Positions 838 through 17,561 of a DNA stretch of 17,561 nt are shown here, in pieces. The position numbers were made by a program, and so were the translations under genes. The notes beneath the pieces are model-generated. The model did not search any database. It was not told where the DNA came from and saw nothing but the letters and a program-made list of their open reading frames with translations. Source of the stretch: Giardia intestinalis (Eukaryota); the NCBI GenBank assembly GCA_000002435.2, contig AACB03000006.1; one strand, given 5' to 3'. Numbering within the stretch: the stretch's first letter is position 1; every line of letters begins with the position of its first letter.

Positions 838-989
838 TCCCTTGTTCCATTCGCTCCTGTGGCATCATGACAGAGTATGCACTCCCCACCAGGGGTCACC
901 TTGTCTGCCCCATTCTGGAATATGTACTGACTATCTGTATTACAAGCAGTGCATACTCCATTACTGGCCTGTGTGCATATCACACTCCA

Positions 990-1040
990 CTATCATACTA
1001 TCACCCTCTATCACACATTGTACAGCATTCACTACCCAAG
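990..1040 (-). repeat. Inter-cassette junction element (a CTATCAC/GTGATAG short-repeat block plus the polyA signal)
   Basis: + strand: ctatcatactatcaccctctatcacacattgtacagcattcactacccaag. It includes the rc of AGTGAAT at 1027..1033, 7 nt past the stop of 1041..2660. It ends in an in-frame TAG (cta at 990..992) followed by ..TGG AGT GTG ATA TGC, which starts the next cassette. Confidence 0.75.
1027..1033 (-). promoter_or_regulatory. Putative polyadenylation signal AGTGAAT (Giardia AGTRAAY consensus)
   Basis: attcact on the + strand, 7 nt 3' of the TGA of 1041..2660. The same heptamer recurs at a fixed distance after every cassette stop: 2842..2848, 4753..4759, 6679..6685, 8592..8598, 10406..10412, 12287..12293, 14102..14108 and 16013..16019. 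Confidence 0.7.
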
Positions 1041-2660
1041 TCACGCCTTCCCCCTGCACACGAACCACCAGCAGAGGAAGCCCACGAGGCCCCCCACGAC
1101 AGCGACCACAGCGACGGAGATCCCCGCGATGGCCCCCGTGGAGAGCCCGCTCCTGTTGGCGCCAGAGGACACACAGGAGGCCCCACTGCTGTCTAGGCTG
1201 AAGCCACTGTTGCACTCCTCACACACATCATCCACCACACAGCTCTTGCAATCACCCACAGAGCATGTCACACACCCACTGCCGTCCTTGTTGGGCACCT
1301 TACCACTGTCACAGGCAGTACACACAGCGGCAGCCATACCAACTGTTGTTAGAGCTGCTGGGGCTGTACACTGGGAGCAGCCATGTACCCCCACATATGC
1401 CTTAGCGGTACCTTGAGGATCTACTAGTGTGCCTAGGGGGTTACTACATGCCAACACGGACTGCTGAGCATTGGATGCCCCTGGTACCAGGAAGTACTTA
1501 TTATTCTCATTAACAGCGGTACAGACACCGTTGGCTGCTGTCTTGCACATATGTTGTCCAGGTGGACTCTGAGTGCTATAACAACCACCCATATATAAGA
1601 AATATCCTGTAGTACAAGACTCACAGACATGGTTGTTACAAGTATTACTTTGAGCCTCACTAGCACAGAGACCATCTATAGGATACTTACTGCTATCCCC
1701 ACAGTATGAACAGTAGTGCTTTGTGGTGCCCTGATCATCTATTATCATGGCATCACAAGCACCAGAGGTACCCCCACAGGCAGTATCATCTTCACATACC
1801 TTTGTACATGTAACAGGACTGGTACCACTCTGCTTGCGATAGTTCACCTTACAGTCAGTACACTTGAAAGTACTGGCCTCCATTGTGCATTGGGAGCACC
1901 CCTCGATGCCCCCATTGTTTGTGTCATCGCAGGCGAAGCATTCTCCAGGAGTGCTACTGACCTTCAGGAAGAACCCGGTCTTGCAGGTTTGGCATTTGGT
2001 CTTGTCAGCTTTTTCAGAACATGTGGCACAGTTAGCACCACAGGCCTCACACGTGGCGGCAGGGCCATTTCCTTCTTTGATATACCCTTCGAGGCATTCT
2101 ATGCATTCTGGTTTCTGACTTTGCTGCTTAGTACATGTCTTGCAGCCGGCAATGCCTTTGTTCTTTGGTTCTGAATCCGACGCTGCGGGATCACTGCACA
2201 AACGACACACGTTGTCTTCGGTCATAAAGAGACCGTTATCAGCTCCTTGACACCCGGCGTAGTCTTTTGTCACACAGGTCGAGGTCCCATCAAGGGTCGT
2301 CCTGGGGGTCTTATTGGTCCCGCAGTTGGTGCACCTTGGCTTCCCCGTGGCATCATTATATTCACATGCGGTGCACCCAGCTATGTCGGGATCACATGCC
2401 TTGCAGGTCCAGGTCTTCTTGTCTGCGTACTTATCAGCACCACATTCAGTAGCCTCTACACAAGTGTTACCATCCTTCAGGAACTTCCCCTCAACGCAGG
2501 CGGTACACTGAGTCGGAGTATCAGCTGAGCAAGCAGAGCAGCCGTCTCCGCACTTCACACATGCACTGTCCTTCGTAACGAACCCTGCTTGACACTCTGT
2601 ACACGTGGCCGGTCCGCTAGTGCCCGTGTGGGAGCATTCTGAGCATCCAGCGACTCCCAT
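1041..2660 (-). CDS. Variant-specific surface protein (VSP), 539 aa
   Basis: The ORF is full of CXXC motifs and contains the FLYMGGCY (GGCY) motif. Its C-terminal hydrophobic helix is [30 protein letters not shown], followed by TGA. The rc of AGTGAAT lies 7 nt beyond the stop at 1027..1033. The ATG at 2658..2660 is real, but in-frame VSP-like codons ([44 protein letters not shown]) continue 48 codons upstream to a TAG at 2805..2807 with no ATG. No signal peptide is present. Confidence 0.85.
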   Translation of the reverse strand: MGVAGCSECSHTGTSGPATCTECQAGFVTKDSACVKCGDGCSACSADTPTQCTACVEGKFLKDGNTCVEATECGADKYADKKTWTCKACDPDIAGCTACEYNDATGKPRCTNCGTNKTPRTTLDGTSTCVTKDYAGCQGADNGLFMTEDNVCRLCSDPAASDSEPKNKGIAGCKTCTKQQSQKPECIECLEGYIKEGNGPAATCEACGANCATCSEKADKTKCQTCKTGFFLKVSSTPGECFACDDTNNGGIEGCSQCTMEASTFKCTDCKVNYRKQSGTSPVTCTKVCEDDTACGGTSGACDAMIIDDQGTTKHYCSYCGDSSKYPIDGLCASEAQSNTCNNHVCESCTTGYFLYMGGCYSTQSPPGQHMCKTAANGVCTAVNENNKYFLVPGASNAQQSVLACSNPLGTLVDPQGTAKAYVGVHGCSQCTAPAALTTVGMAAAVCTACDSGKVPNKDGSGCVTCSVGDCKSCVVDDVCEECNSGFSLDSSGASCVSSGANRSGLSTGAIAGISVAVVAVVGGLVGFLCWWFVCRGKA

Positions 2661-2804
2661 GACCCCGTTTCTATCTGTCGTATCAGAGCACAGTATGCAC
2701 TCACTACCCTTCTCTGGTGTTGCAGCCGGGTTCTTGAACAGGCCGTTATCTGCCTTACAAGCAGTGCACAGTCCTCCCTCAGCCTTTGTGCATATCTCAC
2801 TCCA

Positions 2805-2855
2805 CTATCATACTATCACCCTCTATCACACATTGTACAGCATTCACTACCCAAG
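2805..2855 (-). repeat. Inter-cassette junction element
   Basis: It is the same conserved ~51-bp element. The polyA signal rc is at 2842..2848, 7 nt past the stop at 2856. The TAG is at 2805..2807. Confidence 0.75.
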
Positions 2856-4697
2856 TCACGCCTTCCCTCTACATATGAACCACCAGCAGAGGAAGCCGAC
2901 GAGGCCCCCCACGACAGCGATGACAGCGACGGAGATCCCTGCTATGGCACCAGTACTGAGGCCGCTCTTGTTGGTGCCAGAGGACGCACAGGAGGTCCCA
3001 CTGCTGTCAGGGCTGTATCCATCGTTGCACACACAGACAGAGTCGGTGTCAGTGGAGTTGCTGGGGCAGCTATCCACGCATGACTTCCTTCCAGGGCTCA
3101 CCTTCTTACCACTACTGCATGCCTCGCACATGTTGTCCATATCACAGTGCGAGCATCCACTAACGGTACATGGGAAGCACCCGCTCCCAGCCAGGTTGGG
3201 CTTGTTGTTGTTGGTACACGCTGTACACACAGCAGCAGTCATACCAGTCTCAGATGGAGCTGTTGGGGCCGTGCATGCTGAGCAGTTGAGTACCCCAACG
3301 TATGCCTTAGAGGTATCACCAGTGCCTACTAGTGTGCCAAGGGAGTTGCTACATGCTAATACAGACTGATTCTGATTGGTTGCCCCAGGGACTACGAAGT
3401 ACCTATTGTTGGCATTAACAGCAGTACAGACACCGTTGGCTGCTGTCTTGCACATATGTTGTCCAGGTACTGTATCAACCTTGTAACAACCTCCCATATA
3501 CAAGAAGTAGTTGTTAGTGCATTGTGTACATACACCTTGATCACATTGATTATTTGCTTTAGCACTATTACACTTCCCATCTATAGGATACGTATTAGCT
3601 TCTCCACAGTATGAGCAATAATGATGCTCTACACCCTTATCATCAATCACTATTGCATCGCAGGCACCAGAAGTTCCTCCACAGGCAGTATCATCTTCAC
3701 AGATCTTGGTGCATGTGACAGAGCCAGTACTGCCCTCCTTGCGATAGTTAGGCTTACAGTCAGTGCACTTGAAAGCACCGTTGTTAGAGCAGACACTGCA
3801 GCCTTCGCGACCCTTATCGTCTACGCTATCGCATGGGACGCACTTCTTCCCCTGTTGATCTGTAGTAGTTACTAAGAAGTATCCAGTCTTGCAGGTTTCA
3901 CACTTATTTGGATCACCAGCAACAGAGCATGTGGCACAGTTATCACCACACTTGTCTGTACATGTACTAGTACCACTATCAAAGAAGTATCCATCGAGAC
4001 AGGCTGAGCAGGTTGGATTGTCACTTCCTGTTTTCGTACATGTCTTGCAGTTGGCCTTTCCTTCGTTACCAAGAGTTGAATCTGTCACATCACTACAAAG
4101 AGCACACGTTTTGTCCTCCTTCATAAATAAGGCCTCGTCAGCGCCCTCGCATCCTTCAAGCGTCTTCGCCACGCAGGTCGATGTCCCGTCGAGGGCCGTC
4201 CTGGGGGTCTTATTGGTCCCGCAGTTAGTGCACTTCGGCTTCCCCGTGGCCTTGTCGAAGGAGCATGCCGTGCACTCTGCGTGTATCGTACTACATGCCT
4301 TGCATGTTCCCGACTCCGGGTCAGCATAAGTGTTTCCATCGCATCCAGTATCTTGTACACATTGATTACTCTTCAGGTACTTCCCCTCTGGGCACGATGT
4401 ACAATGATTCTGACCACTTCCATCGCAGGTCAGACAAGCTTCATTACATTTGACACATGTCTGAGAGTTCTTGTAGTATCCATCTTGGCACTCTGTACAC
4501 GTGGCAGGTCCTGGACTACTGTCTGACTTGGTACACTGTGCGCAGTTAGCCACCCCTGTATATCCATCTGCCCCATTGACATCATGACAGAGGATGCACT
4601 CACTACCAGGCTTCTGAGGTGTAACTGGGTTCTTGAACAGGCCGTTAGCTGTCTTACAAGCAGTGCACACTCCATCACTGGCTGCTGTGCATATCAC
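2856..4697 (-). CDS. Variant-specific surface protein (VSP), 613 codons. The ORF begins at GTG directly after the junction TAG, and the first in-frame ATG is ~190 codons in
   Basis: It has CXXC repeats, the GGCY motif, and the tail [17 protein letters not shown] followed by TGA. The first codon at 4695..4697 is cac on the + strand, which is GTG on the gene strand. The upstream in-frame sequence reads TAG TGG AGT (..*WS). The polyA signal is at 4753..4759 for the upstream neighbour and 2842..2848 for this gene. Confidence 0.8.
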   Translation of the reverse strand: MICTAASDGVCTACKTANGLFKNPVTPQKPGSECILCHDVNGADGYTGVANCAQCTKSDSSPGPATCTECQDGYYKNSQTCVKCNEACLTCDGSGQNHCTSCPEGKYLKSNQCVQDTGCDGNTYADPESGTCKACSTIHAECTACSFDKATGKPKCTNCGTNKTPRTALDGTSTCVAKTLEGCEGADEALFMKEDKTCALCSDVTDSTLGNEGKANCKTCTKTGSDNPTCSACLDGYFFDSGTSTCTDKCGDNCATCSVAGDPNKCETCKTGYFLVTTTDQQGKKCVPCDSVDDKGREGCSVCSNNGAFKCTDCKPNYRKEGSTGSVTCTKICEDDTACGGTSGACDAIVIDDKGVEHHYCSYCGEANTYPIDGKCNSAKANNQCDQGVCTQCTNNYFLYMGGCYKVDTVPGQHMCKTAANGVCTAVNANNRYFVVPGATNQNQSVLACSNSLGTLVGTGDTSKAYVGVLNCSACTAPTAPSETGMTAAVCTACTNNNKPNLAGSGCFPCTVSGCSHCDMDNMCEACSSGKKVSPGRKSCVDSCPSNSTDTDSVCVCNDGYSPDSSGTSCASSGTNKSGLSTGAIAGISVAVIAVVGGLVGFLCWWFICRGKA

Positions 4698-4703
4698 ACT
4701 CCA

Positions 4704-4766
4704 CTATCACACATTATCACCCACTATCACCTTCTATCACCCATTGTACAGCATTCACTACCCAAG
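4704..4766 (-). repeat. Inter-cassette junction element (a longer variant with extra CTATCAC-like units)
   Basis: + strand: ctatcacacattatcacccactatcaccttctatcacccattgtacagcattcactacccaag. The polyA signal rc is at 4753..4759. The TAG is at 4704..4706. Confidence 0.75.
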
Positions 4767-6497
4767 TCACGCCTTCCCCCTGCACACGAACCACCAGCAG
4801 AGGAAGCCCACGAGGCCCCCCACGACAGCGATGACAGCCACGGAGATCCCCGCGACGGCCCCCGTGGAGAGCCCGCTCCTGTTGGTGCCAGAGGACACAC
4901 ACATGCCATCCCTCGGGACATAGCCCTCCTCGCACTCCCCGCAGACGCCCTCTGCGCTGCACCGCATGCACCTCTCTATGTCACAGACAATGCACTGGGT
5001 GCCGTCCAGGCTGGGTCTCTGGTCTTTATTGGTACATGCCTCACACTTGTTGTCTGCGCTGCAGTGAGAGCAGCCCTGGGCCGGACACACATAGCAGGTG
5101 CTTCCAGCCATGTTGGGCTTCTTATTGTCCTCAGCACACACCTCGCACATCCCGTCGATGGCGCAGCTCTTGCACCCGCCGACCGCACACAGGGTGCACC
5201 CGCTGCCATCCTTGTTGGGCTTCTTCGTCTTGTCGCACGCACTACAGACCGCCGCGGCCATCGCATTGGCGGCTGGCGCCTGCGGGGCCGCGCACGCCGT
5301 GCAGTCTAGCACGCCGACGTACGCCTTGTCGCCCGCGGTCGCTCCCACAGGGTTGCCACAGGCAAGCACGGACTGCTGAGCAGCAGAGTCCCCAGGAATC
5401 TTGAAGTAGCGCCCGACCGGTGTGGTGCAGAACCCACTTGGAGCCGCAGAGCACATGAGGTTGCCAGGAGCCTTCGACACATCATAGCAACCACCCATAT
5501 AGAGGAAGTAGTTGTTGGTGCACCGCGTACATACGCCATCGGCGCAGGTATTACCTGCAAGTGCATTGGTGCACTTCCCATTAATAGGGCCATAGCCGGC
5601 GCCAACACACTTTGAACAGTAAGAGAGCATGCTGCCGTCGTTGCCGACCACGATGGCGTCGCAGGCCCCTGCTGTCCCTCCACATGCAGTCTCATCTTCA
5701 CAGGTCTTTGTACATGTGAGGTCGCTAGGTTCTCCGCTGGGTCTGTAGTTGGGCTTACATTCAGTGCATTTGAGGGACCCCACGCCGCCTGTGCACTCGG
5801 CACAGCCTGGAATCCCACTTGTCTCGTCATCACAGAGAACGCATGTCTTAGGCGGGCCATCCTTAAGGAAGTACCCCGGCATGCATCTTGTACATGTGTT
5901 GATTTGACCCGCTGTTCCGCACTCTGCGCAGTTTCCTGTGCAGGCCTCGCAGGCGTTTCCGTTGACTTTATACCCGTCGACACAAGCCTCGCAGGTGCCT
6001 TTTGCGGTGCACAGCTTGCAGTTCTGGACTCCGCCCTTACCATTGTCGCCGCACTGCACGCACTTCGAGGCGTCGTAGAAGTGCGTCTTGCCCACTTTGC
6101 ACTCGGCCTCATCAACACAGGTCGTTGTCCCATCCAGCTCGTCTCTGACCGTCTTACTACCGCAGTCGGTGCACTTCGGCTTTCCCGTGGCGTCGTCGTA
6201 TGCACACGCGGTGCATCCTTGTATCTCACTGCAGGCCTTACAGGTCCAGGTCTTCTTGTCCGCATAGTTACCATTGTCACATCCACCAGCATCTACACAA
6301 GTGTTACCATCCTTCAGGTACTTCCCCTCAACGCAGGCGGTACACTGAGTCGGAGTATCAGCTGAGCAAGCAGAGCAGCCGTCTCCGCACTTCACACATG
6401 CACTGTCCTTCGTAACGAACCCTGCTTGACACTCTGTACACGTGGCCGGTCCGCTAGTGCCCGTGTGGGAGCATTCTGAGCATCCAGCGACTCCCAT
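4767..6497 (-). CDS. Variant-specific surface protein (VSP), 576 aa
   Basis: Its N-terminal 58 aa are identical to those of the 1041..2660 protein and the middle is divergent. It carries the CRGKA tail. The same 48-codon ATG-less in-frame extension continues upstream to 6642..6644. The polyA signal is at 4753..4759. Confidence 0.85.
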   Translation of the reverse strand: MGVAGCSECSHTGTSGPATCTECQAGFVTKDSACVKCGDGCSACSADTPTQCTACVEGKYLKDGNTCVDAGGCDNGNYADKKTWTCKACSEIQGCTACAYDDATGKPKCTDCGSKTVRDELDGTTTCVDEAECKVGKTHFYDASKCVQCGDNGKGGVQNCKLCTAKGTCEACVDGYKVNGNACEACTGNCAECGTAGQINTCTRCMPGYFLKDGPPKTCVLCDDETSGIPGCAECTGGVGSLKCTECKPNYRPSGEPSDLTCTKTCEDETACGGTAGACDAIVVGNDGSMLSYCSKCVGAGYGPINGKCTNALAGNTCADGVCTRCTNNYFLYMGGCYDVSKAPGNLMCSAAPSGFCTTPVGRYFKIPGDSAAQQSVLACGNPVGATAGDKAYVGVLDCTACAAPQAPAANAMAAAVCSACDKTKKPNKDGSGCTLCAVGGCKSCAIDGMCEVCAEDNKKPNMAGSTCYVCPAQGCSHCSADNKCEACTNKDQRPSLDGTQCIVCDIERCMRCSAEGVCGECEEGYVPRDGMCVSSGTNRSGLSTGAVAGISVAVIAVVGGLVGFLCWWFVCRGKA

Positions 6498-6641
6498 GAC
6501 CCCGTTTCTATCTGTCGTATCAGAGCACAGTATGCACTCACTACCCTTCTCTGGTGTTGCATCAGGGTTCTTGAACAGGCCGTTAGCTGTCTTACAAGCA
6601 GTGCACAGTCCTCCCTCAGCCTTTGTGCATATCTCACTCCA

Positions 6642-6692
6642 CTATCATACTATCACACACTATCACCCATTGTATAGCATTCACTACCCAAG
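6642..6692 (-). repeat. Inter-cassette junction element
   Basis: + strand: ctatcatactatcacacactatcacccattgtatagcattcactacccaag. The polyA signal rc is at 6679..6685. Confidence 0.75.
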
Positions 6693-8540
6693 TCACGCCT
6701 TCCCCCTGCACACGAACCACCAGCAGAGGAAGCCCACGAGGCCCCCCACGACAGCGATGACAGCCACGGAGATCCCTGCTATGGCACCAGTACTGAGGCC
6801 GCTTCTGTTGCCCCCGCTGGGCTTGGTGGACACGCACGCCTCACCCTCCAGCCTGTAGTCGTCCCCACACTGGCCGCACTTGTTCTCCTCGCTGCACCTG
6901 ACGCACCCGTCGATATTGCAGGCGATGCACTTCGTTCCGTCTGTGTTCGGCCTCTGGTCTTTACTGGTACAGGCCTCGCACTTACCGCCTGCTCCACAGT
7001 GCGAGCATCCGTCAACGGTACATGCGAAGCACCCGCTCCCAGCCAGGTTGGGCTTGTTGTTGTTGGTACACGCTGTACACACAGCAGCAGTCATACCAGT
7101 CTCAGACAGAGCTGTTGGGGCCGTGCATGCCGAACAGCCATCTACCCCCACATATGCCTTAGAGGTATCACCAGTGCCTACTAGTGTGCCAAGGGAGTTG
7201 CTACATGCCAATACAGACTGATTCTGATTGGTTGCCCCAGGGACTATGAAGTACCTATTGTTGGCATTAACAGCGGTACAGACACCGTTGGCTGCTGTCT
7301 TGCACATATGTTGTCCAGGTACTGTATCAACCTTGTAACAACCTCCCATATACAAGAAGTAGTTGTTAGTGCATTGTGTACATACACCTTGATCACATTG
7401 ATTATTTGCTTTAGCACTATTACACTTCCCATCTATAGGATACGTATTAGCTTCTCCACAGTATGAGCAATAATGATGCTCTACACCCTTATCATCAATC
7501 ACTATTGCATCGCAGGCACCAGAAGTTCCTCCACAGGCAGTATCATCTTCACAGATCTTGGTGCATGTGACAGAGCCAGTACTGCCCTCCTTGCGATAGT
7601 TAGGCTTACAGTCAGTGCACTTGAAAGCACCGTTGTTAGAGCAGACACTGCAGCCTTCGCGACCCTTATCGTCTACGCTATCGCATGGGACGCACTTCTT
7701 CCCCTGTTGATCTGTAGTAGTTACTAAGAAGTATCCAGTCTTGCAGGTTTCACACTTATTTGGATCACCAGCAACAGAGCATGTGGCACAGTTATCACCA
7801 CACTTGTCTGTACATGTACTAGTACCACTATCAAAGAAGTATCCATCGAGACAGGCTGAGCAGGTTGGATTGTCACTTCCTGTTTTCGTACATGTCTTGC
7901 AGTTGGCCTTTCCTTCGTTACCAAGAGTTGAATCTGTCACATCACTACAAAGAGCACACGTTTTGTCCTCCTTCATAAATAAGGCCTCGTCAGCGCCCTC
8001 GCATCCTTCAAGCGTCTTCGCCACGCAGGTCGATGTCCCGTCGAGGGCCGTCCTGGGGGTCTTATTGGTCCCGCAGTTAGTGCACTTCGGCTTCCCCGTG
8101 GCCTTGTCGAAGGAGCATGCCGTGCACTCTGCGTGTATCGTACTACATGCCTTGCATGTTCCCGACTCCGGGTCAGCATACTTATCATTACCACAGCTAT
8201 CAGTACATTGATTCCCATTGAGGTACTTCCCCTCTGGACACGATGTGCACTGGGTCGCCGATGTCTCACAGGTGGCACAGTTCCCCTCGCATGGCTTACA
8301 AAGCTTGTTGTTTAGGAAGTACCCCTCTTGACAGGTATTACACGTGGCAGGTCCTGCATTCCCTGGTGCCGTACACTTGAGACAGTTGGCCACTCCCGTA
8401 TATCCATTCGCTCCCTTGATATCAGAGCACAAGATGCACTCCCCACCAGGAGTCACCTTGTCTGCCCTGTTCTGGAATATGTACTTGTTATCTGTCTTAC
8501 AAGCAGTGCACAGTCCATTACTGGCCTTTGTACATATCAC
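6693..8540 (-). CDS. Variant-specific surface protein (VSP), 615 codons, a mosaic paralogue
   Basis: The central ~350 aa (…CKACSTIHAECTACSFDKATGKPKCTNCGTNKTPRTALDGTSTCVAK… through …AYVGV) are essentially identical to 2856..4697. The C-terminal ~100 aa match the C-terminus of 10506..12098. The N-terminus is unique. It carries the CRGKA tail. The first codon is GTG, preceded by an in-frame TAG at 8547..8549. Confidence 0.8.
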   Translation of the reverse strand: MICTKASNGLCTACKTDNKYIFQNRADKVTPGGECILCSDIKGANGYTGVANCLKCTAPGNAGPATCNTCQEGYFLNNKLCKPCEGNCATCETSATQCTSCPEGKYLNGNQCTDSCGNDKYADPESGTCKACSTIHAECTACSFDKATGKPKCTNCGTNKTPRTALDGTSTCVAKTLEGCEGADEALFMKEDKTCALCSDVTDSTLGNEGKANCKTCTKTGSDNPTCSACLDGYFFDSGTSTCTDKCGDNCATCSVAGDPNKCETCKTGYFLVTTTDQQGKKCVPCDSVDDKGREGCSVCSNNGAFKCTDCKPNYRKEGSTGSVTCTKICEDDTACGGTSGACDAIVIDDKGVEHHYCSYCGEANTYPIDGKCNSAKANNQCDQGVCTQCTNNYFLYMGGCYKVDTVPGQHMCKTAANGVCTAVNANNRYFIVPGATNQNQSVLACSNSLGTLVGTGDTSKAYVGVDGCSACTAPTALSETGMTAAVCTACTNNNKPNLAGSGCFACTVDGCSHCGAGGKCEACTSKDQRPNTDGTKCIACNIDGCVRCSEENKCGQCGDDYRLEGEACVSTKPSGGNRSGLSTGAIAGISVAVIAVVGGLVGFLCWWFVCRGKA

Positions 8541-10224
8541 ACTCCACTATCACACTATCACCCTCTATACCATTATCACACATTGTATAGCATTCACTAC
8601 CTGAGTCATGCCTTCCCTCTACATATGAACCACCAGCAGAGGAAGCCCACGAGGCCCCCACGACGACGACCACAGCGACGGAGATCCCCGCGATGGCCCC
8701 CGTGGAGAGCCCGCTCCTGTTGGTACTCATAGACACACAGGAGGCCCCACTGCTGTCTATGCTGAAACCACTGTTGCACTCTTCACATATATTATCCATC
8801 ACACAGCTCTTACAATCACCCACAGAGCATGTCACACACCCACTGCCGTCCTTGTTGGGCACCTTACCACTGTCACAGGAGGTACACACAGCGGCAGTCA
8901 TACCACCATCAGACAGAGCTGCTGGGGCCGTACATGCCGAACAGCCATCTACCCCCACATATGCCTTAGCGGTACCTTGAGGATCTACTAGTGTGCCTAG
9001 GGGGTTACTACATGCCAACACGGACTGCTGAGCATTGGATGCCCCTGGTACCAGGAAGTACTTATTATTCTCATTAACAGCGGTACAGACACCGTTGGCT
9101 GCTGTCTTGCACATATGTTGTCCAGGTGGACTCTGAGTGCTATAACAACCACCCATATATAAGAAATATCCTGTAGTACAAGACTCACAGACATGGTTGT
9201 TACAAGTATTACTTTGAGCCTCACTAGCACAGAGACCATCTATAGGATACTTACTGCTATCCCCACAGTATGAACAGTAGTGCTTTGTGGTGCCCTGATC
9301 ATCTATTATCATGGCATCACAAGCACCAGAGGTACCCCCACAGGCAGTATCATCTTCACATACCTTTGTACATGTAACAGGACTGGTACCACTCTGCTTG
9401 CGATAGTTCACCTTACAGTCAGTACACTTGAAAGTACTGGCCTCCATTGTGCATTGGGAGCACCCCTCGATGCCCCCATTGTTTGTGTCATCGCAGGCGA
9501 AGCATTCTCCAGGAGTGCTACTGACCTTCAGGAAGAACCCGGTCTTGCAGGTTTGGCATTTGGTCTTGTCAGCTTTTTCAGAACATGTGGCACAGTTAGC
9601 ACCACAGGCCTCACACGTGGCGGCAGGGCCATTTCCTTCTTTGATATACCCTTCGAGGCATTCTATGCATTCTGGTTTCTGACTTTGCTGCTTAGTACAT
9701 GTCTTGCAGCCGGCAATGCCTTTGTTCTTTGGTTCTGAATCCGACGCTGCGGGATCACTGCACAAACGACACACGTTGTCTTCGGTCATAAAGAGACCGT
9801 TATCAGCTCCTTGACACCCGGCGTAGTCTTTTGTCACACAGGTCGAGGTCCCATCAAGGGTCGTCCTGGGGGTCTTATTGGTCCCGCAGTTAGTGCACCT
9901 TGGCTTCCCCGTGGCATCATTATATTCACATGCGGTGCACCCAGCTATGTCGGGATCACATGCCTTGCAGGTCCAGGTCTTCTTGTCTGCGTACTTATCA
10001 GCACCACATTCAGTAGCCTCTACACAAGTGTTACCATCCTTCAGGAACTTCCCCTCAACGCAGGCGGTACACTGAGTCGGAGTATCAGCTGAGCAAGCAG
10101 AGCAGCCGTCTCCGCACTTCACACATGCACTGTCCTTCGTAACGAACCCTGCTTGACACTCTGTACACGTGGCCGGTCCGCTAGTGCCCGTGTGGGAGCA
10201 TTCTGAGCATCCAGCGACTCCCAT
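8518..10224 (-). CDS. VSP paralogue of 1041..2660 with an apparent frameshift in the transmembrane/tail coding region. The expected CRGKA stop is at 8606..8608
   Basis: The protein is identical to the 539-aa VSP up to ...AKAYVGV and then divergent. On the + strand at ~8656..8662 a run of 5 C replaces the 6 C seen in every other copy, a G6 run in the codons VGGLVG. The ORF therefore reads through the FLCWWFICRGKA frame and ends at 8518. Restoring 1 nt would give ...FLCWWFICRGKA with TGA at 8606. Confidence 0.7.
   Translation of the reverse strand: MGVAGCSECSHTGTSGPATCTECQAGFVTKDSACVKCGDGCSACSADTPTQCTACVEGKFLKDGNTCVEATECGADKYADKKTWTCKACDPDIAGCTACEYNDATGKPRCTNCGTNKTPRTTLDGTSTCVTKDYAGCQGADNGLFMTEDNVCRLCSDPAASDSEPKNKGIAGCKTCTKQQSQKPECIECLEGYIKEGNGPAATCEACGANCATCSEKADKTKCQTCKTGFFLKVSSTPGECFACDDTNNGGIEGCSQCTMEASTFKCTDCKVNYRKQSGTSPVTCTKVCEDDTACGGTSGACDAMIIDDQGTTKHYCSYCGDSSKYPIDGLCASEAQSNTCNNHVCESCTTGYFLYMGGCYSTQSPPGQHMCKTAANGVCTAVNENNKYFLVPGASNAQQSVLACSNPLGTLVDPQGTAKAYVGVDGCSACTAPAALSDGGMTAAVCTSCDSGKVPNKDGSGCVTCSVGDCKSCVMDNICEECNSGFSIDSSGASCVSMSTNRSGLSTGAIAGISVAVVVVVGASWASSAGGSYVEGRHDSGSECYTMCDNGIEGDSVIVECDMYKGQ
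8547..8605 (-). repeat. Inter-cassette junction element (a variant)
   Basis: + strand: ctatcacactatcaccctctataccattatcacacattgtatagcattcactacctgag. The polyA signal rc is at 8592..8598. The stop of the upstream cassette would be 8606..8608. Confidence 0.7.
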
Positions 10225-10368
10225 GACCCCGTTTCTATCTGTCGTATCAGAGCACAGTATGCACTCACTACCCTTCTCTGGTGTTGCAGCCGGGTTCTTG
10301 AACAGGCCGTTATCTGCCTTACAAGCAGTGCACAGTCCTCCCTCAGCCTTTGTGCATATCTCACTCCA

Positions 10369-10419
10369 CTATCATACTATCACCCTCTATCACACATTGT
10401 ACAGCATTCACTACCCAAG
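10369..10419 (-). repeat. Inter-cassette junction element
   Basis: Same as 2805..2855. The polyA signal rc is at 10406..10412. The expected stop of the 10506..12098 cassette is 10420..10422. Confidence 0.75.
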
Positions 10420-10505
10420 TCACGCCTTCCCCCTGCACACGAACCACCAGCAGAGGAAGCCCACGAGGCCCCCCACGACAGCGATGACAGCCACGGAGAT
10501 CCCTG

Positions 10506-12098
10506 CTATGGCACCAGTACTGAGGCCGCTTCTGTTGCCCCGCTGGGCTTGGTGGACACGCACGCCTCACCCTCCAGCCTGTAGTCGTCCCCACACTGGC
10601 CGCACTTGTTCTCCTCGCTGCACCTGACGCACCCGTCGATATTGCAGGCGATGCACTTCGTTCCGTCTGTGTTCGGCCTCTGGTCTTTACTGGTACAGGC
10701 CTCGCACTTATCGCCTGCTCCACAGTGCGAGCATCCGTCAACGGTACATGCGAAGCACCCGCTCCCAGCCAGGTTGGGCTTGTTGTTGTTGGTACACGCT
10801 GTGCACGTGGCGGCAGTCATGCCACCATCAGATGGAGCTGCTGGGGCTGTACACTGTGAACAGTTGAGTACCCCCACGTATGCCTTAGCAGTATCACCAG
10901 TGCCTACTAGTGTGCCTAGGGGGTTCTCGCAGGCCAGGACAGACTGATCAGTATTGGATGCCCCCGGGACCAGGAAGTACCGGCCGTTCTCGCTGGGGGC
11001 GGTGCACCTCCCTCCCTCGGCAGTCTTGCACATGTGGCTGCCAGGAGCCTTCGACACATCATAGCAGCCGCCCATGTACAGGAAGAACCCGGCAGCACAC
11101 CGGGTGCAGACGCCATTGGCACAGGTGTTGTCACCCTTAGTTCCTGTGCAGATCCCATCGATGGGGAACGTGGCGGGGTCTCCGCACAGCGAGCAGTACT
11201 GGGAGAACGCCCCGGCGCTGTCAACGACGACCGCCCCGCAGGCCCCAGACGTCCCCCCGCAGGCCGTGGGGTCCTCGCAGGCCTTTGTGCACTTCACCGG
11301 ATTGGTTCCCTCCTTGCGATAGTTGGACTTGCAATCGGTGCATGTAGGGGTTAGGCCGCTGTTACATTGGGAGCACCCCTCGATGCCATTGTCGGCTTTA
11401 CTGTCGCAGGCGAAGCACTTACCAGCAGAGCCGGGTTGTTTCATGAAGAATCCAGGCTTGCATTTAGTGCACTGATCATTGCCAGCAGCAGAGCATGTAG
11501 CACAGTTGGCACCGCAAGCTGTGCATGTATCAGAACCAAAGTATCCGTCGAGGCAAGCTGAGCAGGTCGGCTTGGCTCCGTTCTTCTTACACGTTTTACA
11601 ATTAGCAATCCCCTTGTCGTTTGCTTCTGTTCCTGTTGTTGTATCACTGCATAATATGCACTTGGTGCTATCATCACTCAGAAAGTGGGATCCGTCGACG
11701 TTATCTGTTGCGCACCCAGCATCATCGACGCAAGTGGTTGTCCCATCCAGCTCTGTCTTCACCTTCTTATTGTTACAGGCGGTGCACTGGGGCTTGCTGA
11801 CAGTCGTGTTGTACTCACACGCGGTGCAATCTGCTATACCAGACTCCTTGCATGTCATTGTCATAGGGTCAGCATAAGTGTTTCCAGTGCATCCATCACT
11901 ATTCACGCATGCATTATCCTTCAGGAACGTATTTCCCTTACAAGAGGTACACTGGGTCGCCGATGTCTCACAGGTCAGACAAGTACCATCACATTTGGTA
12001 CATGCCTGAGAGTCCATGTAGTACCCATCTTGACACTCGGTGCACGTGGCCGCTCCTGTATTGCCACCAGGTGCCGTGCACTTGAGACAGTTGGCCAC
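10506..12098 (-). CDS. VSP paralogue ([12 protein letters not shown]...) with a frameshift just before the transmembrane domain. The expected end is at 10420
   Basis: It has CXXC repeats, the GGCY motif, and C-terminal modules shared with 6693..8540. At 10538..10541 there are 4 C where 5 C stand at the homologous 6811..6815. The shift gives ...[14 protein letters not shown] instead of [17 protein letters not shown]...CRGKA. The first codon at 12096..12098 is GTG. An additional N-terminal frameshift is present in the upstream piece 12099..12243. Confidence 0.7.
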
Positions 12099-12249
12099 TC
12101 CCTTGTTCCATTCGCTCCTGTGGCATCATGACAGAGATGCACTCCCCACCAGGGGTCACCTTGTCTGCCCCATTCTGGAATATGTACTGACTATCTGTAT
12201 TACAAGCAGTGCATACTCCATTACTGGCCTGTGTGCATATCACACTCCA

Positions 12250-12300
12250 CTATCATACTATCACCCTCTATCACACATTGTACAGCATTCACTACCCAAG
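12250..12300 (-). repeat. Inter-cassette junction element
   Basis: A copy of 990..1040 at the +11260 offset. The polyA signal rc is at 12287..12293. Confidence 0.75.
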
Positions 12301-13920
12301 TCACGCCTTCCCCCTGCACACGAACCACCAGCAGAGGAAGCCCACGAGGCCCCCCACGACAGCGACCACAGCGACGGAGATCCCCGCGATGGCCCCCGTG
12401 GAGAGCCCGCTCCTGTTGGCGCCAGAGGACACACAGGAGGCCCCACTGCTGTCTAGGCTGAAGCCACTGTTGCACTCCTCACACACATCATCCACCACAC
12501 AGCTCTTGCAATCACCCACAGAGCATGTCACACACCCACTGCCGTCCTTGTTGGGCACCTTACCACTGTCACAGGCAGTACACACAGCGGCAGCCATACC
12601 AACTGTTGTTAGAGCTGCTGGGGCTGTACACTGGGAGCAGCCATGTACCCCCACATATGCCTTAGCGGTACCTTGAGGATCTACTAGTGTGCCTAGGGGG
12701 TTACTACATGCCAACACGGACTGCTGAGCATTGGATGCCCCTGGTACCAGGAAGTACTTATTATTCTCATTAACAGCGGTACAGACACCGTTGGCTGCTG
12801 TCTTGCACATATGTTGTCCAGGTGGACTCTGAGTGCTATAACAACCACCCATATATAAGAAATATCCTGTAGTACAAGACTCACAGACATGGTTGTTACA
12901 AGTATTACTTTGAGCCTCACTAGCACAGAGACCATCTATAGGATACTTACTGCTATCCCCACAGTATGAACAGTAGTGCTTTGTGGTGCCCTGATCATCT
13001 ATTATCATGGCATCACAAGCACCAGAGGTACCCCCACAGGCAGTATCATCTTCACATACCTTTGTACATGTAACAGGACTGGTACCACTCTGCTTGCGAT
13101 AGTTCACCTTACAGTCAGTACACTTGAAAGTACTGGCCTCCATTGTGCATTGGGAGCACCCCTCGATGCCCCCATTGTTTGTGTCATCGCAGGCGAAGCA
13201 TTCTCCAGGAGTGCTACTGACCTTCAGGAAGAACCCGGTCTTGCAGGTTTGGCATTTGGTCTTGTCAGCTTTTTCAGAACATGTGGCACAGTTAGCACCA
13301 CAGGCCTCACACGTGGCGGCAGGGCCATTTCCTTCTTTGATATACCCTTCGAGGCATTCTATGCATTCTGGTTTCTGACTTTGCTGCTTAGTACATGTCT
13401 TGCAGCCGGCAATGCCTTTGTTCTTTGGTTCTGAATCCGACGCTGCGGGATCACTGCACAAACGACACACGTTGTCTTCGGTCATAAAGAGACCGTTATC
13501 AGCTCCTTGACACCCGGCGTAGTCTTTTGTCACACAGGTCGAGGTCCCATCAAGGGTCGTCCTGGGGGTCTTATTGGTCCCGCAGTTGGTGCACCTTGGC
13601 TTCCCCGTGGCATCATTATATTCACATGCGGTGCACCCAGCTATGTCGGGATCACATGCCTTGCAGGTCCAGGTCTTCTTGTCTGCGTACTTATCAGCAC
13701 CACATTCAGTAGCCTCTACACAAGTGTTACCATCCTTCAGGAACTTCCCCTCAACGCAGGCGGTACACTGAGTCGGAGTATCAGCTGAGCAAGCAGAGCA
13801 GCCGTCTCCGCACTTCACACATGCACTGTCCTTCGTAACGAACCCTGCTTGACACTCTGTACACGTGGCCGGTCCGCTAGTGCCCGTGTGGGAGCATTCT
13901 GAGCATCCAGCGACTCCCAT
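12301..13920 (-). CDS. Variant-specific surface protein (VSP), 539 aa, a second copy of 1041..2660
   Basis: The protein is identical to the 1041..2660 product and lies at the +11260 offset. It has the CRGKA tail. The polyA signal is at 12287..12293. Confidence 0.85.
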   Translation of the reverse strand: MGVAGCSECSHTGTSGPATCTECQAGFVTKDSACVKCGDGCSACSADTPTQCTACVEGKFLKDGNTCVEATECGADKYADKKTWTCKACDPDIAGCTACEYNDATGKPRCTNCGTNKTPRTTLDGTSTCVTKDYAGCQGADNGLFMTEDNVCRLCSDPAASDSEPKNKGIAGCKTCTKQQSQKPECIECLEGYIKEGNGPAATCEACGANCATCSEKADKTKCQTCKTGFFLKVSSTPGECFACDDTNNGGIEGCSQCTMEASTFKCTDCKVNYRKQSGTSPVTCTKVCEDDTACGGTSGACDAMIIDDQGTTKHYCSYCGDSSKYPIDGLCASEAQSNTCNNHVCESCTTGYFLYMGGCYSTQSPPGQHMCKTAANGVCTAVNENNKYFLVPGASNAQQSVLACSNPLGTLVDPQGTAKAYVGVHGCSQCTAPAALTTVGMAAAVCTACDSGKVPNKDGSGCVTCSVGDCKSCVVDDVCEECNSGFSLDSSGASCVSSGANRSGLSTGAIAGISVAVVAVVGGLVGFLCWWFVCRGKA

Positions 13921-14064
13921 GACCCCGTTTCTATCTGTCGTATCAGAGCACAGTATGCACTCACTACCCTTCTCTGGTGTTGCAGCCGGGTTCTTGAACA
14001 GGCCGTTATCTGCCTTACAAGCAGTGCACAGTCCTCCCTCAGCCTTTGTGCATATCTCACTCCA

Positions 14065-14115
14065 CTATCATACTATCACCCTCTATCACACATTGTACAG
14101 CATTCACTACCCAAG
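14065..14115 (-). repeat. Inter-cassette junction element
   Basis: A copy of 2805..2855. The polyA signal rc is at 14102..14108. Confidence 0.75.
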
Positions 14116-15957
14116 TCACGCCTTCCCTCTACATATGAACCACCAGCAGAGGAAGCCGACGAGGCCCCCCACGACAGCGATGACAGCGACGGAGATCCCT
14201 GCTATGGCACCAGTACTGAGGCCGCTCTTGTTGGTGCCAGAGGACGCACAGGAGGTCCCACTGCTGTCAGGGCTGTATCCATCGTTGCACACACAGACAG
14301 AGTCGGTGTCAGTGGAGTTGCTGGGGCAGCTATCCACGCATGACTTCCTTCCAGGGCTCACCTTCTTACCACTACTGCATGCCTCGCACATGTTGTCCAT
14401 ATCACAGTGCGAGCATCCACTAACGGTACATGGGAAGCACCCGCTCCCAGCCAGGTTGGGCTTGTTGTTGTTGGTACACGCTGTACACACAGCAGCAGTC
14501 ATACCAGTCTCAGATGGAGCTGTTGGGGCCGTGCATGCTGAGCAGTTGAGTACCCCAACGTATGCCTTAGAGGTATCACCAGTGCCTACTAGTGTGCCAA
14601 GGGAGTTGCTACATGCTAATACAGACTGATTCTGATTGGTTGCCCCAGGGACTACGAAGTACCTATTGTTGGCATTAACAGCAGTACAGACACCGTTGGC
14701 TGCTGTCTTGCACATATGTTGTCCAGGTACTGTATCAACCTTGTAACAACCTCCCATATACAAGAAGTAGTTGTTAGTGCATTGTGTACATACACCTTGA
14801 TCACATTGATTATTTGCTTTAGCACTATTACACTTCCCATCTATAGGATACGTATTAGCTTCTCCACAGTATGAGCAATAATGATGCTCTACACCCTTAT
14901 CATCAATCACTATTGCATCGCAGGCACCAGAAGTTCCTCCACAGGCAGTATCATCTTCACAGATCTTGGTGCATGTGACAGAGCCAGTACTGCCCTCCTT
15001 GCGATAGTTAGGCTTACAGTCAGTGCACTTGAAAGCACCGTTGTTAGAGCAGACACTGCAGCCTTCGCGACCCTTATCGTCTACGCTATCGCATGGGACG
15101 CACTTCTTCCCCTGTTGATCTGTAGTAGTTACTAAGAAGTATCCAGTCTTGCAGGTTTCACACTTATTTGGATCACCAGCAACAGAGCATGTGGCACAGT
15201 TATCACCACACTTGTCTGTACATGTACTAGTACCACTATCAAAGAAGTATCCATCGAGACAGGCTGAGCAGGTTGGATTGTCACTTCCTGTTTTCGTACA
15301 TGTCTTGCAGTTGGCCTTTCCTTCGTTACCAAGAGTTGAATCTGTCACATCACTACAAAGAGCACACGTTTTGTCCTCCTTCATAAATAAGGCCTCGTCA
15401 GCGCCCTCGCATCCTTCAAGCGTCTTCGCCACGCAGGTCGATGTCCCGTCGAGGGCCGTCCTGGGGGTCTTATTGGTCCCGCAGTTAGTGCACTTCGGCT
15501 TCCCCGTGGCCTTGTCGAAGGAGCATGCCGTGCACTCTGCGTGTATCGTACTACATGCCTTGCATGTTCCCGACTCCGGGTCAGCATAAGTGTTTCCATC
15601 GCATCCAGTATCTTGTACACATTGATTACTCTTCAGGTACTTCCCCTCTGGGCACGATGTACAATGATTCTGACCACTTCCATCGCAGGTCAGACAAGCT
15701 TCATTACATTTGACACATGTCTGAGAGTTCTTGTAGTATCCATCTTGGCACTCTGTACACGTGGCAGGTCCTGGACTACTGTCTGACTTGGTACACTGTG
15801 CGCAGTTAGCCACCCCTGTATATCCATCTGCCCCATTGACATCATGACAGAGGATGCACTCACTACCAGGCTTCTGAGGTGTAACTGGGTTCTTGAACAG
15901 GCCGTTAGCTGTCTTACAAGCAGTGCACACTCCATCACTGGCTGCTGTGCATATCAC
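14116..15957 (-). CDS. Variant-specific surface protein (VSP), 613 codons, a second copy of 2856..4697
   Basis: The protein is identical to the 2856..4697 product and lies at the +11260 offset. It has a GTG first codon and the CRGKA tail. The polyA signal is at 14102..14108. Confidence 0.8.
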   Translation of the reverse strand: MICTAASDGVCTACKTANGLFKNPVTPQKPGSECILCHDVNGADGYTGVANCAQCTKSDSSPGPATCTECQDGYYKNSQTCVKCNEACLTCDGSGQNHCTSCPEGKYLKSNQCVQDTGCDGNTYADPESGTCKACSTIHAECTACSFDKATGKPKCTNCGTNKTPRTALDGTSTCVAKTLEGCEGADEALFMKEDKTCALCSDVTDSTLGNEGKANCKTCTKTGSDNPTCSACLDGYFFDSGTSTCTDKCGDNCATCSVAGDPNKCETCKTGYFLVTTTDQQGKKCVPCDSVDDKGREGCSVCSNNGAFKCTDCKPNYRKEGSTGSVTCTKICEDDTACGGTSGACDAIVIDDKGVEHHYCSYCGEANTYPIDGKCNSAKANNQCDQGVCTQCTNNYFLYMGGCYKVDTVPGQHMCKTAANGVCTAVNANNRYFVVPGATNQNQSVLACSNSLGTLVGTGDTSKAYVGVLNCSACTAPTAPSETGMTAAVCTACTNNNKPNLAGSGCFPCTVSGCSHCDMDNMCEACSSGKKVSPGRKSCVDSCPSNSTDTDSVCVCNDGYSPDSSGTSCASSGTNKSGLSTGAIAGISVAVIAVVGGLVGFLCWWFICRGKA

Positions 15958-15963
15958 ACTCCA

Positions 15964-16026
15964 CTATCACACATTATCACCCACTATCACCTTCTATCAC
16001 CCATTGTACAGCATTCACTACCCAAG
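15964..16026 (-). repeat. Inter-cassette junction element (long variant)
   Basis: A copy of 4704..4766. The polyA signal rc is at 16013..16019. Confidence 0.75.
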
Positions 16027-17561
16027 TCACGCCTTCCCCCTGCACACGAACCACCAGCAGAGGAAGCCCACGAGGCCCCCCACGACAGCGATGACAGCCA
16101 CGGAGATCCCCGCGACGGCCCCGTGGAGAGCCCGCTCCTGTTGGTGCCAGAGGACACACACATGCCATCCCTCGGGACATAGCCCTCCTCGCACTCCCCG
16201 CAGACGCCCTCTGCGCTGCACCGCATGCACCTCTCTATGTCACAGACAATGCACTGGGTGCCGTCCAGGCTGGGTCTCTGGTCTTTATTGGTACATGCCT
16301 CACACTTGTTGTCTGCGCTGCAGTGAGAGCAGCCCTGGGCCGGACACACATAGCAGGTGCTTCCAGCCATGTTGGGCTTCTTATTGTCCTCAGCACACAC
16401 CTCGCACATCCCGTCGATGGCGCAGCTCTTGCACCCGCGACCGCACACAGGTGCACCCGCTGCCATCCTGTGGGCTTCTTCGTCTTGTCGCACGCACTAC
16501 AGACCGCCGCGGCCATCGCATTGGCGGGCTGGCGCCTGCGGGCCGCGCACGCCCGTGCATCTAGCACGCCGACGTACGCCTTGTCGCCCGCGGTCGCTCC
16601 CACAGGGTTGCCACAGGCAGCACGGACTGCTGAGCAGCAAGTCCCCAGAATCTGAAGTACGCCCGACGGTGTGGTGCAGAACCCACTGGAGCCGCAGAGC
16701 ACATGAGGTTGCCAGAGCCTTCGACACATCATAGCAACCACCCATATAGAGGAAGTAGTTGTTGGTGCACCGCGTACATACGCCATCGGCGCAGGTATTA
16801 CCTGCAAGTGCATTGTGCACTTTCCCATTAATAGGCCCATAGCCGGCGCCAACACACTTTGAACAGTAAGAGAGCATGCTGCCGTCGTGCCGACCACGAT
16901 GGCGTCGCAGGCCCCTGCTGTCCCCACATGCAGTCTCATCTTCACAGGTCTTTGTACATGTGAGGTCGCTAGGTTCTCCGCTGGTCTGTAGTTGGGCTTA
17001 CATTCAGTGCATTTGAGGGACCCCACGCCGCCTGTGCACTCGGCACAGCCTGGAATCCCACTTGTCTCGTCATCACAGAGAAACGCATGTCTTAGGCGGG
17101 CCATCCTTAAGGAAGTACCCGGCATGCATCTTGTACATGTGTTGATTTGACCCGCTGTTCCGCACTCTGCGCAGTTTCCTGTGCAGGCCTCGCAGGCGTT
17201 TCCGTTGACTTTATTACCCGTCGACACAAGCCTCGCAGGTGCCTTTTGCGGTGCACAGCTTGCAGTTCTGGACTCCGCCCTTACCATTGTCGCCGCACTG
17301 CACGCACTTGAGGCGTCGTAGAAGTGCGTCTTGCCCACTTTGCACTCGGCCTCATCAACACAGGTCGTTGTCCCATCCAGCTCGTCTCTGACCGTTTACT
17401 ACCGCAGTCGGTGCACTTCGGCTTTCCCGTGGCGTCGTCGTATGCACACGCCGGTGCATCCTTGTATCTCACTGCAGGCCTTACAGGTCCAGGTCTTCTT
17501 GTCCGCATAGTTACCTTGTCACATCCACCAGCATCTACACAAGTGTTACCATCCTTCAGGT
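16027..17561 (-). pseudogene. Degraded or low-quality second copy of the 4767..6497 VSP, partial at the window end
   Basis: 16027..16230 encodes an intact ...[24 protein letters not shown] tail. Upstream of that, the copy differs from 4975..6301 almost only by many 1-3 nt deletions, with no obvious substitutions. For example, 16441..16500 versus 5181..5244 lacks c, g and tgt. The reading frame hops between three frames in ORFs 16235..17338, 16497..16877 and 17281..17508. Confidence 0.6.

Follow-up and report, generated by a model that had tools for sequence, protein, structure and literature searches.

Linear arrays of genes for variant-specific surface proteins (VSPs) have been described in Giardia WB, with spacers of ~60 bp between members and with downstream members that lack the initiator (Inr) (Adam et al. 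2010, PMC2996952). The same study reported pairs of arrays with 'long regions of 100% identity', together with GENECONV evidence of recombination, and proposed that the downstream members 'serve as cassettes for recombination'. In the G. muris genome, arrays of pseudo-VSPs (psiVSPs) are reported to be untranscribed and to exchange sequence with intact VSPs, and segmental gene conversion is referred to there as 'previously demonstrated in G. intestinalis' (PMC7641422). In a population study of 2025, VSPs were over-represented in the gene-conversion tracts of assemblage AI (PMC12669663). VSP switching in Giardia has been ascribed to epigenetic or RNA interference (RNAi)-type, post-transcriptional control without DNA rearrangement. 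Here we analyse a 17.5-kb stretch of G. intestinalis assemblage A (WB-like) DNA (contig AACB03000006.1, 17,561 nucleotides; hereafter the window, whose coordinates are used throughout), which very likely represents part of a linear head-to-tail array of psiVSP cassettes with a unit of ~1.8-1.9 kb, a judgement made jointly with that on the mechanism of recombination among them.

Silent-cassette gene-conversion systems include vlsE/vls of Borrelia, the mosaic VSGs of Trypanosoma brucei, drawn from arrays of pseudogenes, and pilS/pilE of Neisseria (see also PMC9159922, PMC13233330). Experiments have demonstrated that in these systems sequence is transferred in one direction, during infection, into a defined expression site. 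They share with the Giardia array tandem, promoter-less, 5'-truncated cassettes kept as open reading frames (ORFs), conserved flanks, variable centres and segmental mosaics. The feature that defines an archive, promoter-less and 5'-truncated cassettes kept as ORFs, is present in the window. The systems differ in that a dedicated expression site exists there, whereas none is linked to the Giardia array.

The window resembles the WB psiVSP arrays (PMC2996952; Xu et al. 2020, PMC7000408) in its head-to-tail units, its ~60-bp spacers, the absence of an Inr or proper start in downstream members, the retention of the CRGKA tail and polyadenylation signal, the paired 100%-identical stretches and the recombination statistics. 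There is no categorical difference from the published WB arrays. What is added to the WB literature is a base-resolution view of blocks that cross cassette borders, a 51-nt exchange zone, a motif (AKAYVGV) found twice at a block edge, an 11.26-kb repeat and partners among complete genes. The psiVSP arrays of G. muris are likewise built of signal-peptide-less cassettes with phylogenetic evidence that they recombined, or underwent segmental gene conversion, with intact VSPs, but they carry a GCRGK tail and are mostly telomere-adjacent, whereas the tails in the window are CRGKA (PMC7641422). Recombination among Giardia psiVSPs is already known; the earlier reading correctly recognized this phenomenon at a locus in a genome that has been well studied, and current understanding is left unchanged. 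The value of the locus is that of a clean example, at base resolution, of a pattern reported statistically, with conserved ends, shuffled centres and blocks identical to complete genes.

Block mosaic of the cassettes

All VSP-like long ORFs of the window lie on the minus strand, and cutting at the conserved ...GGGAAGGC(G/A)TGA ends of that strand yields ten consecutive same-strand units, lettered F'', A, B, C, D, E, F, A', B' and C' (Table 1). A nucleotide alignment of six units (A to F) was scored in 50-column bins. Identity along the cassettes proved to be step-like, without gradual decay, in agreement with the blocks that a preliminary description of this DNA had proposed.

One block joins cassettes E and A. 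Over spacer, head and centre, E 8950..10419 and A 1386..2855 agree across 1470 nt (exact runs of 527 and 942 nt) with a single synonymous C/T difference at 9892/2328, and past the ...AKAYVGV motif identity falls to 88%, with 40 differences in 345 nt. This bears out the earlier statement that E equals A up to this motif and then switches. It had also been stated that A, C and E share their first 58 residues and the 48 ATG-less codons upstream and then diverge. A common N-terminal stretch is indeed present in all three, counting 59 identical residues from the first Met rather than 58; the upstream codons are the same in A and E, but C differs at three of them. Divergence applies to C, which after its exact runs of 66 and 242 nt with A/E drops to ~50% identity, and not to A and E, whose proteins are identical over 425 aa counted from the first Met.

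Cassette D is a mosaic of different composition. Its centre matches B exactly over 905 nt (D 7276..8180 = B 3424..4328) and at 98.5% identity over 1186 nt (D 6995..8180 versus B 3143..4328), which in protein terms is a 311-aa exact run within a near-identical stretch of ~385 aa. Its tail (6693..7076) equals the tail of F (10420..10802) bar one substitution and one indel in a G run, and the last 128 aa of the two cassettes differ by one substitution. The B-type centre and F-type tail, previously put at ~350 and ~100 aa, were therefore recovered at somewhat greater length. The N-terminus had been called D's own; over its first 140 aa no other cassette of the window is a close match (63% identity to F, 61% to B), but at informative nucleotide sites D tends towards F.

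The block mosaic is real and lies far beyond chance. The longest exact runs (942, 905 and 242 nt) surpassed the highest values reached in 1000 column permutations (496, 73 and 26), and maximum chi-square values of 168-308 stood against a permutation maximum of 29. A triplet test of D with B and F as parents, which relies on informative sites and is robust to rate variation along the gene, gave a patchy F-leaning head, followed by an unbroken run of 348 B-only sites (8192..7278) and, 3' of a brief zone of mixed sites, another of 107 F-only sites (7025..6705); the longest such runs in permutations were 33 and 11. Background dS between cassettes is 0.9-2.4, near saturation, and essentially zero inside the blocks. 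Chance is excluded by the permutations, the maximum chi-square, the triplet runs and this contrast in dS, and the earlier reading of sharp boundaries as the signature of homologous recombination or segmental gene conversion is upheld by the identity tables, the chi-square values and the triplet runs. The Hudson-Kaplan Rmin was weighed and set aside, as synonymous sites between the backbones are saturated and recurrent mutation would dominate the four-gamete violations.

Identity without recombination would be expected if the identical stretches were no more than the portions of the VSP fold under strongest constraint, kept since duplication by purifying selection. Conserved motifs are indeed present in VSPs (CXXC, AKAYVGV and the transmembrane (TM)-CRGKA end), and the last ~120 alignment columns are 79-99% identical in all cassette pairs. 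However, the blocks are identical at synonymous sites too, with non-coding spacer included, and they are pair-specific: the regions shared by A and E (head and centre), B and D (centre) or D and F (tail) are only ~50% identical in other pairs. For these reasons the explanation by purifying selection alone is refuted. Mean identity is 83% in the non-coding spacers, 87% in the tails and 57% in the coding centres, and this greater likeness of spacers and tails indicates that the unit ends have evolved in concert, that diverse centres have been imported, or both.

The blocks do not respect the cassettes as units. When cassette borders were ignored in the comparison, near-identical blocks were found to run from the tail of one cassette through the spacer into the head of the next (Table 1). 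The stretch 2455..2966, comprising B tail, spacer and A head, equals 6292..6803 at 97%, and 877..2966 (A with the first 164 nt of the F head and the last 110 nt of the B tail) equals 8434..10530 (E with the first 172 nt of the D head and the last 110 nt of the F tail) at 96.8%. The N-terminal stretch common to A, C and E forms the downstream half of such a junction-spanning block and is not an exchangeable module. As the near-identical blocks cross cassette borders, the notion of module exchange between cassettes is inaccurate as first worded.

The edges of the blocks can be placed closely. The switch from B to F in D falls in 51 nt identical in all three cassettes, where the exact runs shared with B (7026..7106) and with F (6986..7076) overlap. 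Smaller patches are seen in D, where 40 nt are closer to E than to B, and in E, where first D and then F fit better than A. The patch in D, at 7126..7165, could be due either to micro-conversion or to polishing. The AKAYVGV-coding motif directly precedes both the boundary between A-like and divergent sequence in E and the E-like patch in D, and it may be a preferred exchange point, two events being too few for calling a hotspot. The motif (GCNAAGGCATATGTGGGGGTA; E 8950..8972, D 7165..7185) is conserved and contains a G run.

Anatomy of the psiVSP cassettes

Membership of the cassettes in the VSP family is evident from several features. Pfam VSP (PF03302) matched each of the three cassettes scanned, A, C and D, with E = 1e-36 to 1e-42 (D, E = 1.1e-36). 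Each of the six cassettes contains 70-82 Cys and 25-32 CXXC motifs. The ending ...CWWF(V/I)CRGKA* is found in A, B, C and D as read and in E and F after restoring one homopolymer G, and the C-terminal TM helix with CRGKA tail that marks the VSP family is therefore in place. After four single-base homopolymer repairs all six cassettes are uninterrupted ORFs of 587-624 codons from WS.ICT to CRGKA. There are 67 invariant Cys columns across the six, and dN/dS is 0.16-0.54. This retained coding character would suit an archive that is maintained or continually renewed, and would suit equally well a divergence inherited from functional ancestors.

The 5' ends are those of incomplete genes. Every cassette ORF starts directly after a stop codon with WS(E/V)ICT and without an ATG, and the first in-frame Met lies 36-193 codons into the raw cassette ORFs. 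The cassettes align from about residue 106 of complete WB VSPs (P0004 and P0008 among the retrieved homologues), just past ...FLFMGGCYKxxxxPG. The complete VSPs used for this alignment begin MFQLIPLFVASALMA... with a signal peptide, and the cassettes are without one. The VSP initiator PyAATGTT, reported at the start codon of 135 of the 136 true WB VSPs (PMC2996952; bioRxiv 2022.03.07.483299), does not occur on either strand of the whole window. The cassettes thus have neither an ATG with signal peptide nor PyAATGTT, the two marks of a complete expressible VSP gene.

At the other end the VSP-type polyadenylation signal AGTGAA is retained, 8 nt past each of the nine cassette stops (Table 1). Between cassettes lie non-coding spacers of ~51-63 nt with multiple TGA and TAG stops. 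Head-to-tail units, spacers of ~60 bp, the lack of a proper start and the kept polyadenylation signal together are the features of a psiVSP linear array, and all of them were observed. On this anatomy the cassettes are predicted to be silent psiVSP copies and not expressible antigens. The preliminary description had gone further in stating that recombination in the array is generating new chimeric surface antigens. Because the cassettes lack an ATG, a signal peptide and the initiator, the chimeras seen in the window are chimeric pseudogenes, and this part of the claim is not supported.

The spacers (for example 2805..2855, 4704..4766 and 8555..8605) consist of GTGATAG-like repeats with stops in two or all three frames, and Tandem Repeats Finder (TRF) places a 10-nt repeat at 4701..4743. 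Spacers of this kind in other arrays appear in the 2007 WB annotation as falsely translated N-termini, MLYSDSDS... (P0006, P0019, P0121).

Complete-gene partners and the mechanism of exchange

The nearest database proteins are VSPs of Giardia lamblia/intestinalis ATCC 50803 (WB), with 99-100% identity to WB entries. The first-Met product of cassette A coincides exactly with AAN52102.1, deposited as 'VSP S7', for whose origin a literature search found no paper. That of cassette D has 99% identity to XP_001705784.1 (P0001). An exact look-up in a collection of 15 billion proteins found only A and the 2007 D-like protein; the first-Met proteins of B, C, D, E and F were absent from it.

Retrieved homologues were also scanned for exact shared peptides, with complete proteins recognized by their signal-peptide-like N-termini. 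Four complete WB genes, three for VSPs and one for a high cysteine membrane protein (HCMP), share sharp identical blocks of 125-287 aa with C, A/E and F at the protein level. In P0004, a complete VSP of 748 aa, residues 433-719 equal cassette C over 287 aa, with ~45% identity upstream; the C-terminal ~310 aa of C match this protein as the 287-aa exact run followed by four differences in the TM region. In P0008, a complete VSP of 720 aa, residues 148-289 equal A/E (142 aa). The centre of F is found at 96-100% identity in P0003 and P0016, which are only 30-55% identical upstream of it, and P0019, P0016 and P0003 hold staggered, overlapping pieces of F, pointing to several independent events. P0016 is annotated 'High cysteine membrane protein Group 1' and ends in ...FIYRGRK, not CRGKA; the sharing of blocks (here 125 aa exact, aa 200-324 or about 11150..11530 of F) therefore reaches an HCMP/CRMP-type gene. 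As read here at the protein level, this link between cassettes and complete genes is indirect and carries neither direction nor timing of transfer.

A further level of repetition is found in the window as a whole. Self-comparison shows that 1..6319 equals 11261..17561, so that the window contains ~1.56 copies of an 11,260-bp direct repeat with six cassettes per unit. On the minus strand the centres of the cassettes follow one another in the order F-A-B-C-B-A. Differences between the two repeat copies are almost exclusively 1-nt indels, only two of which lie before position 4859, and over ~4.7 kb (137..4858) they differ at a single position, a 1-nt indel at 876. Long-read assemblies can expand or collapse such repeats, and the number of units in the genome may differ from that in the window.

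Ectopic homologous recombination among arrayed psiVSPs, mainly as segmental gene conversion, is the best explanation of these observations, and one in which we have considerable confidence. Each unit is a VSP body cut at the same 5' point, ending in the TM-CRGKA segment and polyadenylation signal and followed by a short stop-rich spacer. Homology for recombination would be supplied by the conserved unit ends (tail, spacer and head) together with short conserved internal motifs. Blocks would have been copied repeatedly from cassette to cassette, and also between the array and complete genes for cysteine-rich surface proteins at other places in the genome, mostly by non-reciprocal segmental gene conversion with tracts of ~40 nt to 1.5 kb, with an additional contribution from unequal crossover or segmental duplication. 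The outcome would be ancient, highly diverged backbones that carry very recent identical blocks. We infer non-reciprocal tracts because of the multiple switches per cassette, the F-type flanks and B-type centre of D, the internal patches and the nested order of centres, and unequal crossover or segmental duplication because of the junction-spanning blocks and the 11.26-kb repeat. One possible history that fits, though not the only one, is an old (A,F)->(E,D) duplication after which the centre of D was overwritten from B.

The junction-spanning blocks and the repeat would also be accounted for by unequal crossover and segmental tandem duplication alone, in which case hybrid cassettes would have arisen without gene conversion, by reciprocal exchange between misaligned cassettes with duplication of all that lay between them, and diverged later by point mutation. 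Border-spanning near-identical blocks (6292..7076 = 10019..10802 and 877..2966 = 8434..10530) are expected where breakpoints lie within cassettes, the 11,260-bp unit as a whole recurs in tandem, and the resemblance of A plus the adjoining F head to E plus the adjoining D head is consistent with the old duplication just mentioned. A single crossover, however, yields one ancestry switch per hybrid, whereas D shows at least three switches as well as its E-like patch, and E contains internal D-like and F-like patches. The order of centres is not obtainable by simple tandem duplication, blocks of 0% divergence adjoin sequence of ~50% identity within one cassette, and blocks are also common to dispersed complete genes on other contigs. 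Crossover and duplication without conversion are accordingly unlikely to be the whole explanation.

Arrays of VSPs are known assembly breakers (PMC2996952; bioRxiv 2022.03.07.483299), and the mosaic might in principle be an assembly or polishing artefact, with reads from different VSP loci joined at repeats or paralogues homogenized by short-read polishing, so that the chimeras and the 11.26-kb repeat would be only apparent. In keeping with this, the repeat copies differ almost only by 1-nt indels, ~30 of them in 16118..17561, as is typical of poorly polished long reads; all frame breaks in E and F are at homopolymers; and five first-Met proteins are not found verbatim in the protein collection. 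Yet the chimera of B centre and F tail seen in D recurs in XP_001705784.1, which comes from an independent Sanger assembly of 2007, and A equals an independently deposited clone (AAN52102.1). At the B-to-F switch the shared identity extends over 51 nt, a length that would not mislead a long-read assembler, and annotated complete genes on chromosome-scale contigs have the same kind of sharp blocks. Indel noise, moreover, does not yield kilobase substitution-free blocks between backbones with dS around 1. An artefact is thus very improbable as the explanation of the breakpoints, for which assembly joins had been named beforehand as the competing account.

Several points weigh against recombination by segmental gene conversion as favoured here. 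Unequal crossover or segmental duplication accounts no less well for the 11.26-kb repeat and for the blocks that span junctions, and the window holds no expression site or complete VSP, nor does it give the direction of transfer. Independent support for the locus is at the protein level: a search for contigs encoding cassette A, P0003, P0004, P0008 or P0016 found none. Between XP_001705784.1 and D there are five residue differences (ENPLG, APAAPS, GAGDK), in all of which the 2007 protein goes with F and which all lie in the junction zone (D 6985..7300), and P0062, whose accession adjoins that of XP_001705784.1, matches none of the window's cassettes, including E and C; because of these two findings, the 2007 D-like protein may come from another copy, or from another repeat unit or allele, or may reflect change since 2007. 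Uncorrected 1-nt indels and a noisy end are present in the window as well, and patches shorter than 100 nt could be polishing or consensus artefacts.

The array might further be an actively used donor archive, from which mitotic segmental gene conversion would feed expressible VSP genes on the time-scale of infection or culture, alongside epigenetic or RNAi switching. Consistent with this, without demonstrating it, are the open cassettes of ~1.8 kb with dN/dS <1 and 67 invariant Cys columns, the zero-divergence blocks common to complete VSPs at the protein level, and the 2007 D-like sequence that is five residues off, all of them towards F and in the junction zone. We judge this role unlikely. 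If it were true it would be important, since new mosaic antigens would then arise as in the mosaic VSGs of T. brucei or vlsE of Borrelia. VSPs are the immunodominant coat of Giardia and vaccine candidates, and diversification of their repertoire decides the stability of a VSP-based vaccine or typing scheme. In practical terms the window has value as a test locus, as its mapped junctions (8181, 7026..7076, 8950 and 6320) suit PCR or long-read assays of exchange during infection.

Sequence quality and minor features

Table 1. Cassettes, shared blocks and other mapped features of the window (window coordinates)
Feature	Coordinates	Strand	Remarks
Cassette F''	1..1040	-	
Cassette A	1041..2855	-	partner of E in recombination; first-Met product identical to 'VSP S7' (AAN52102.1)
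Cassette B	2856..4766	-	partner of D's centre
Cassette C	4767..6692	-	head common to A and E (exact runs 242 + 66 nt)
Cassette D	6693..8605	-	spacer + ORF 6696..8546 + stop; mosaic of F-leaning head, B-type centre and F-type tail
Cassette E	8606..10419	-	first 1470 nt A-type, then divergent mosaic tail
Cassette F	10420..12300	-	tail is partner of D's tail; head and tail frame breaks all at 1-nt homopolymer positions
Cassette A'	12301..14115	-	
Cassette B'	14116..16026	-	
Cassette C'	16027..17561	-	
D block exactly equal to B 3424..4328	7276..8180	-	348 consecutive B-only informative sites
D tail equal to F tail	6693..7076	-	107 consecutive F-only informative sites
E block equal to A 1386..2855	8950..10419	-	exact runs and informative sites
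Junction-spanning block (F tail + spacer + E head)	10019..10802	-	98.6% to 6292..7076 over 785 nt
Partner junction-spanning block (D tail + spacer + C head)	6292..7076	-	comparison ignoring cassette borders
B-to-F exchange zone in D	7026..7076	-	overlap of the exact runs that D shares with B (7026..7106) and with F (6986..7076); 51 nt common to all three
Patch in D directly after AKAYVGV motif	7126..7165	-	97% to E, 77% to B
Patch in E past AKAYVGV breakpoint	8893..8972	-	D (97%) then F (90%) better than A; D-only and F-only informative-site runs
Second copy of 11,260-bp higher-order tandem unit	11261..17561		equals 1..6319
AGTGAA sites	1033, 2848, 4759, 6685, 8598, 10412, 12293, 14108, 16019		
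Example spacer	8555..8605	-	stop-rich; AGTGAA 8 nt after upstream stop

The frame of two cassettes is broken in the sequence as read. In the tail of E (about 8670) a run of five G stands where other cassettes have six, and in the tail of F (about 10548) a run of four stands in place of five. The head of F is broken at 12126..12140, where there is a length difference between GGG and GGGG and one T differs between the repeat copies (876 versus 12136). Because these breaks are at 1-nt homopolymer positions and indel noise is demonstrable in the window, they are probably sequencing errors. True pseudogenization by the frameshifts in E and F and the internal stop in F was considered and rejected, all of these being at such positions in a noisy window.

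The noise itself is unevenly distributed. Against the other repeat copy, about 30 single-base indels crowd the segment 16118..17561, where C' is broken into several short frames; it has the look of a contig end or of low-coverage sequence left unpolished. The pattern of indels between the repeat copies points to residual long-read error rather than to divergence.

A metagenome scan with the conserved spacer gave 0 matches. A second scan, with a 21-mer from the TM-coding region, returned five loci that share only 23-29 nt with the query and show no VSP homology by tblastn, and these were set aside as chance matches. Scans of the window with Rfam, for tRNAs and with TRF revealed no non-VSP content, the only hit being the 10-nt repeat in one spacer.

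Long ORFs of 150-330 aa also occur antisense to the cassettes or out of frame with them, for example on the plus strand at 2605..3369, 4584..5309 and 13865..14629, and on the minus strand at 5306..6292. Their translations are of low complexity and rich in Pro, Thr and His, and they recur because the cassettes recur. They look like by-products of the codon composition of the cassettes.

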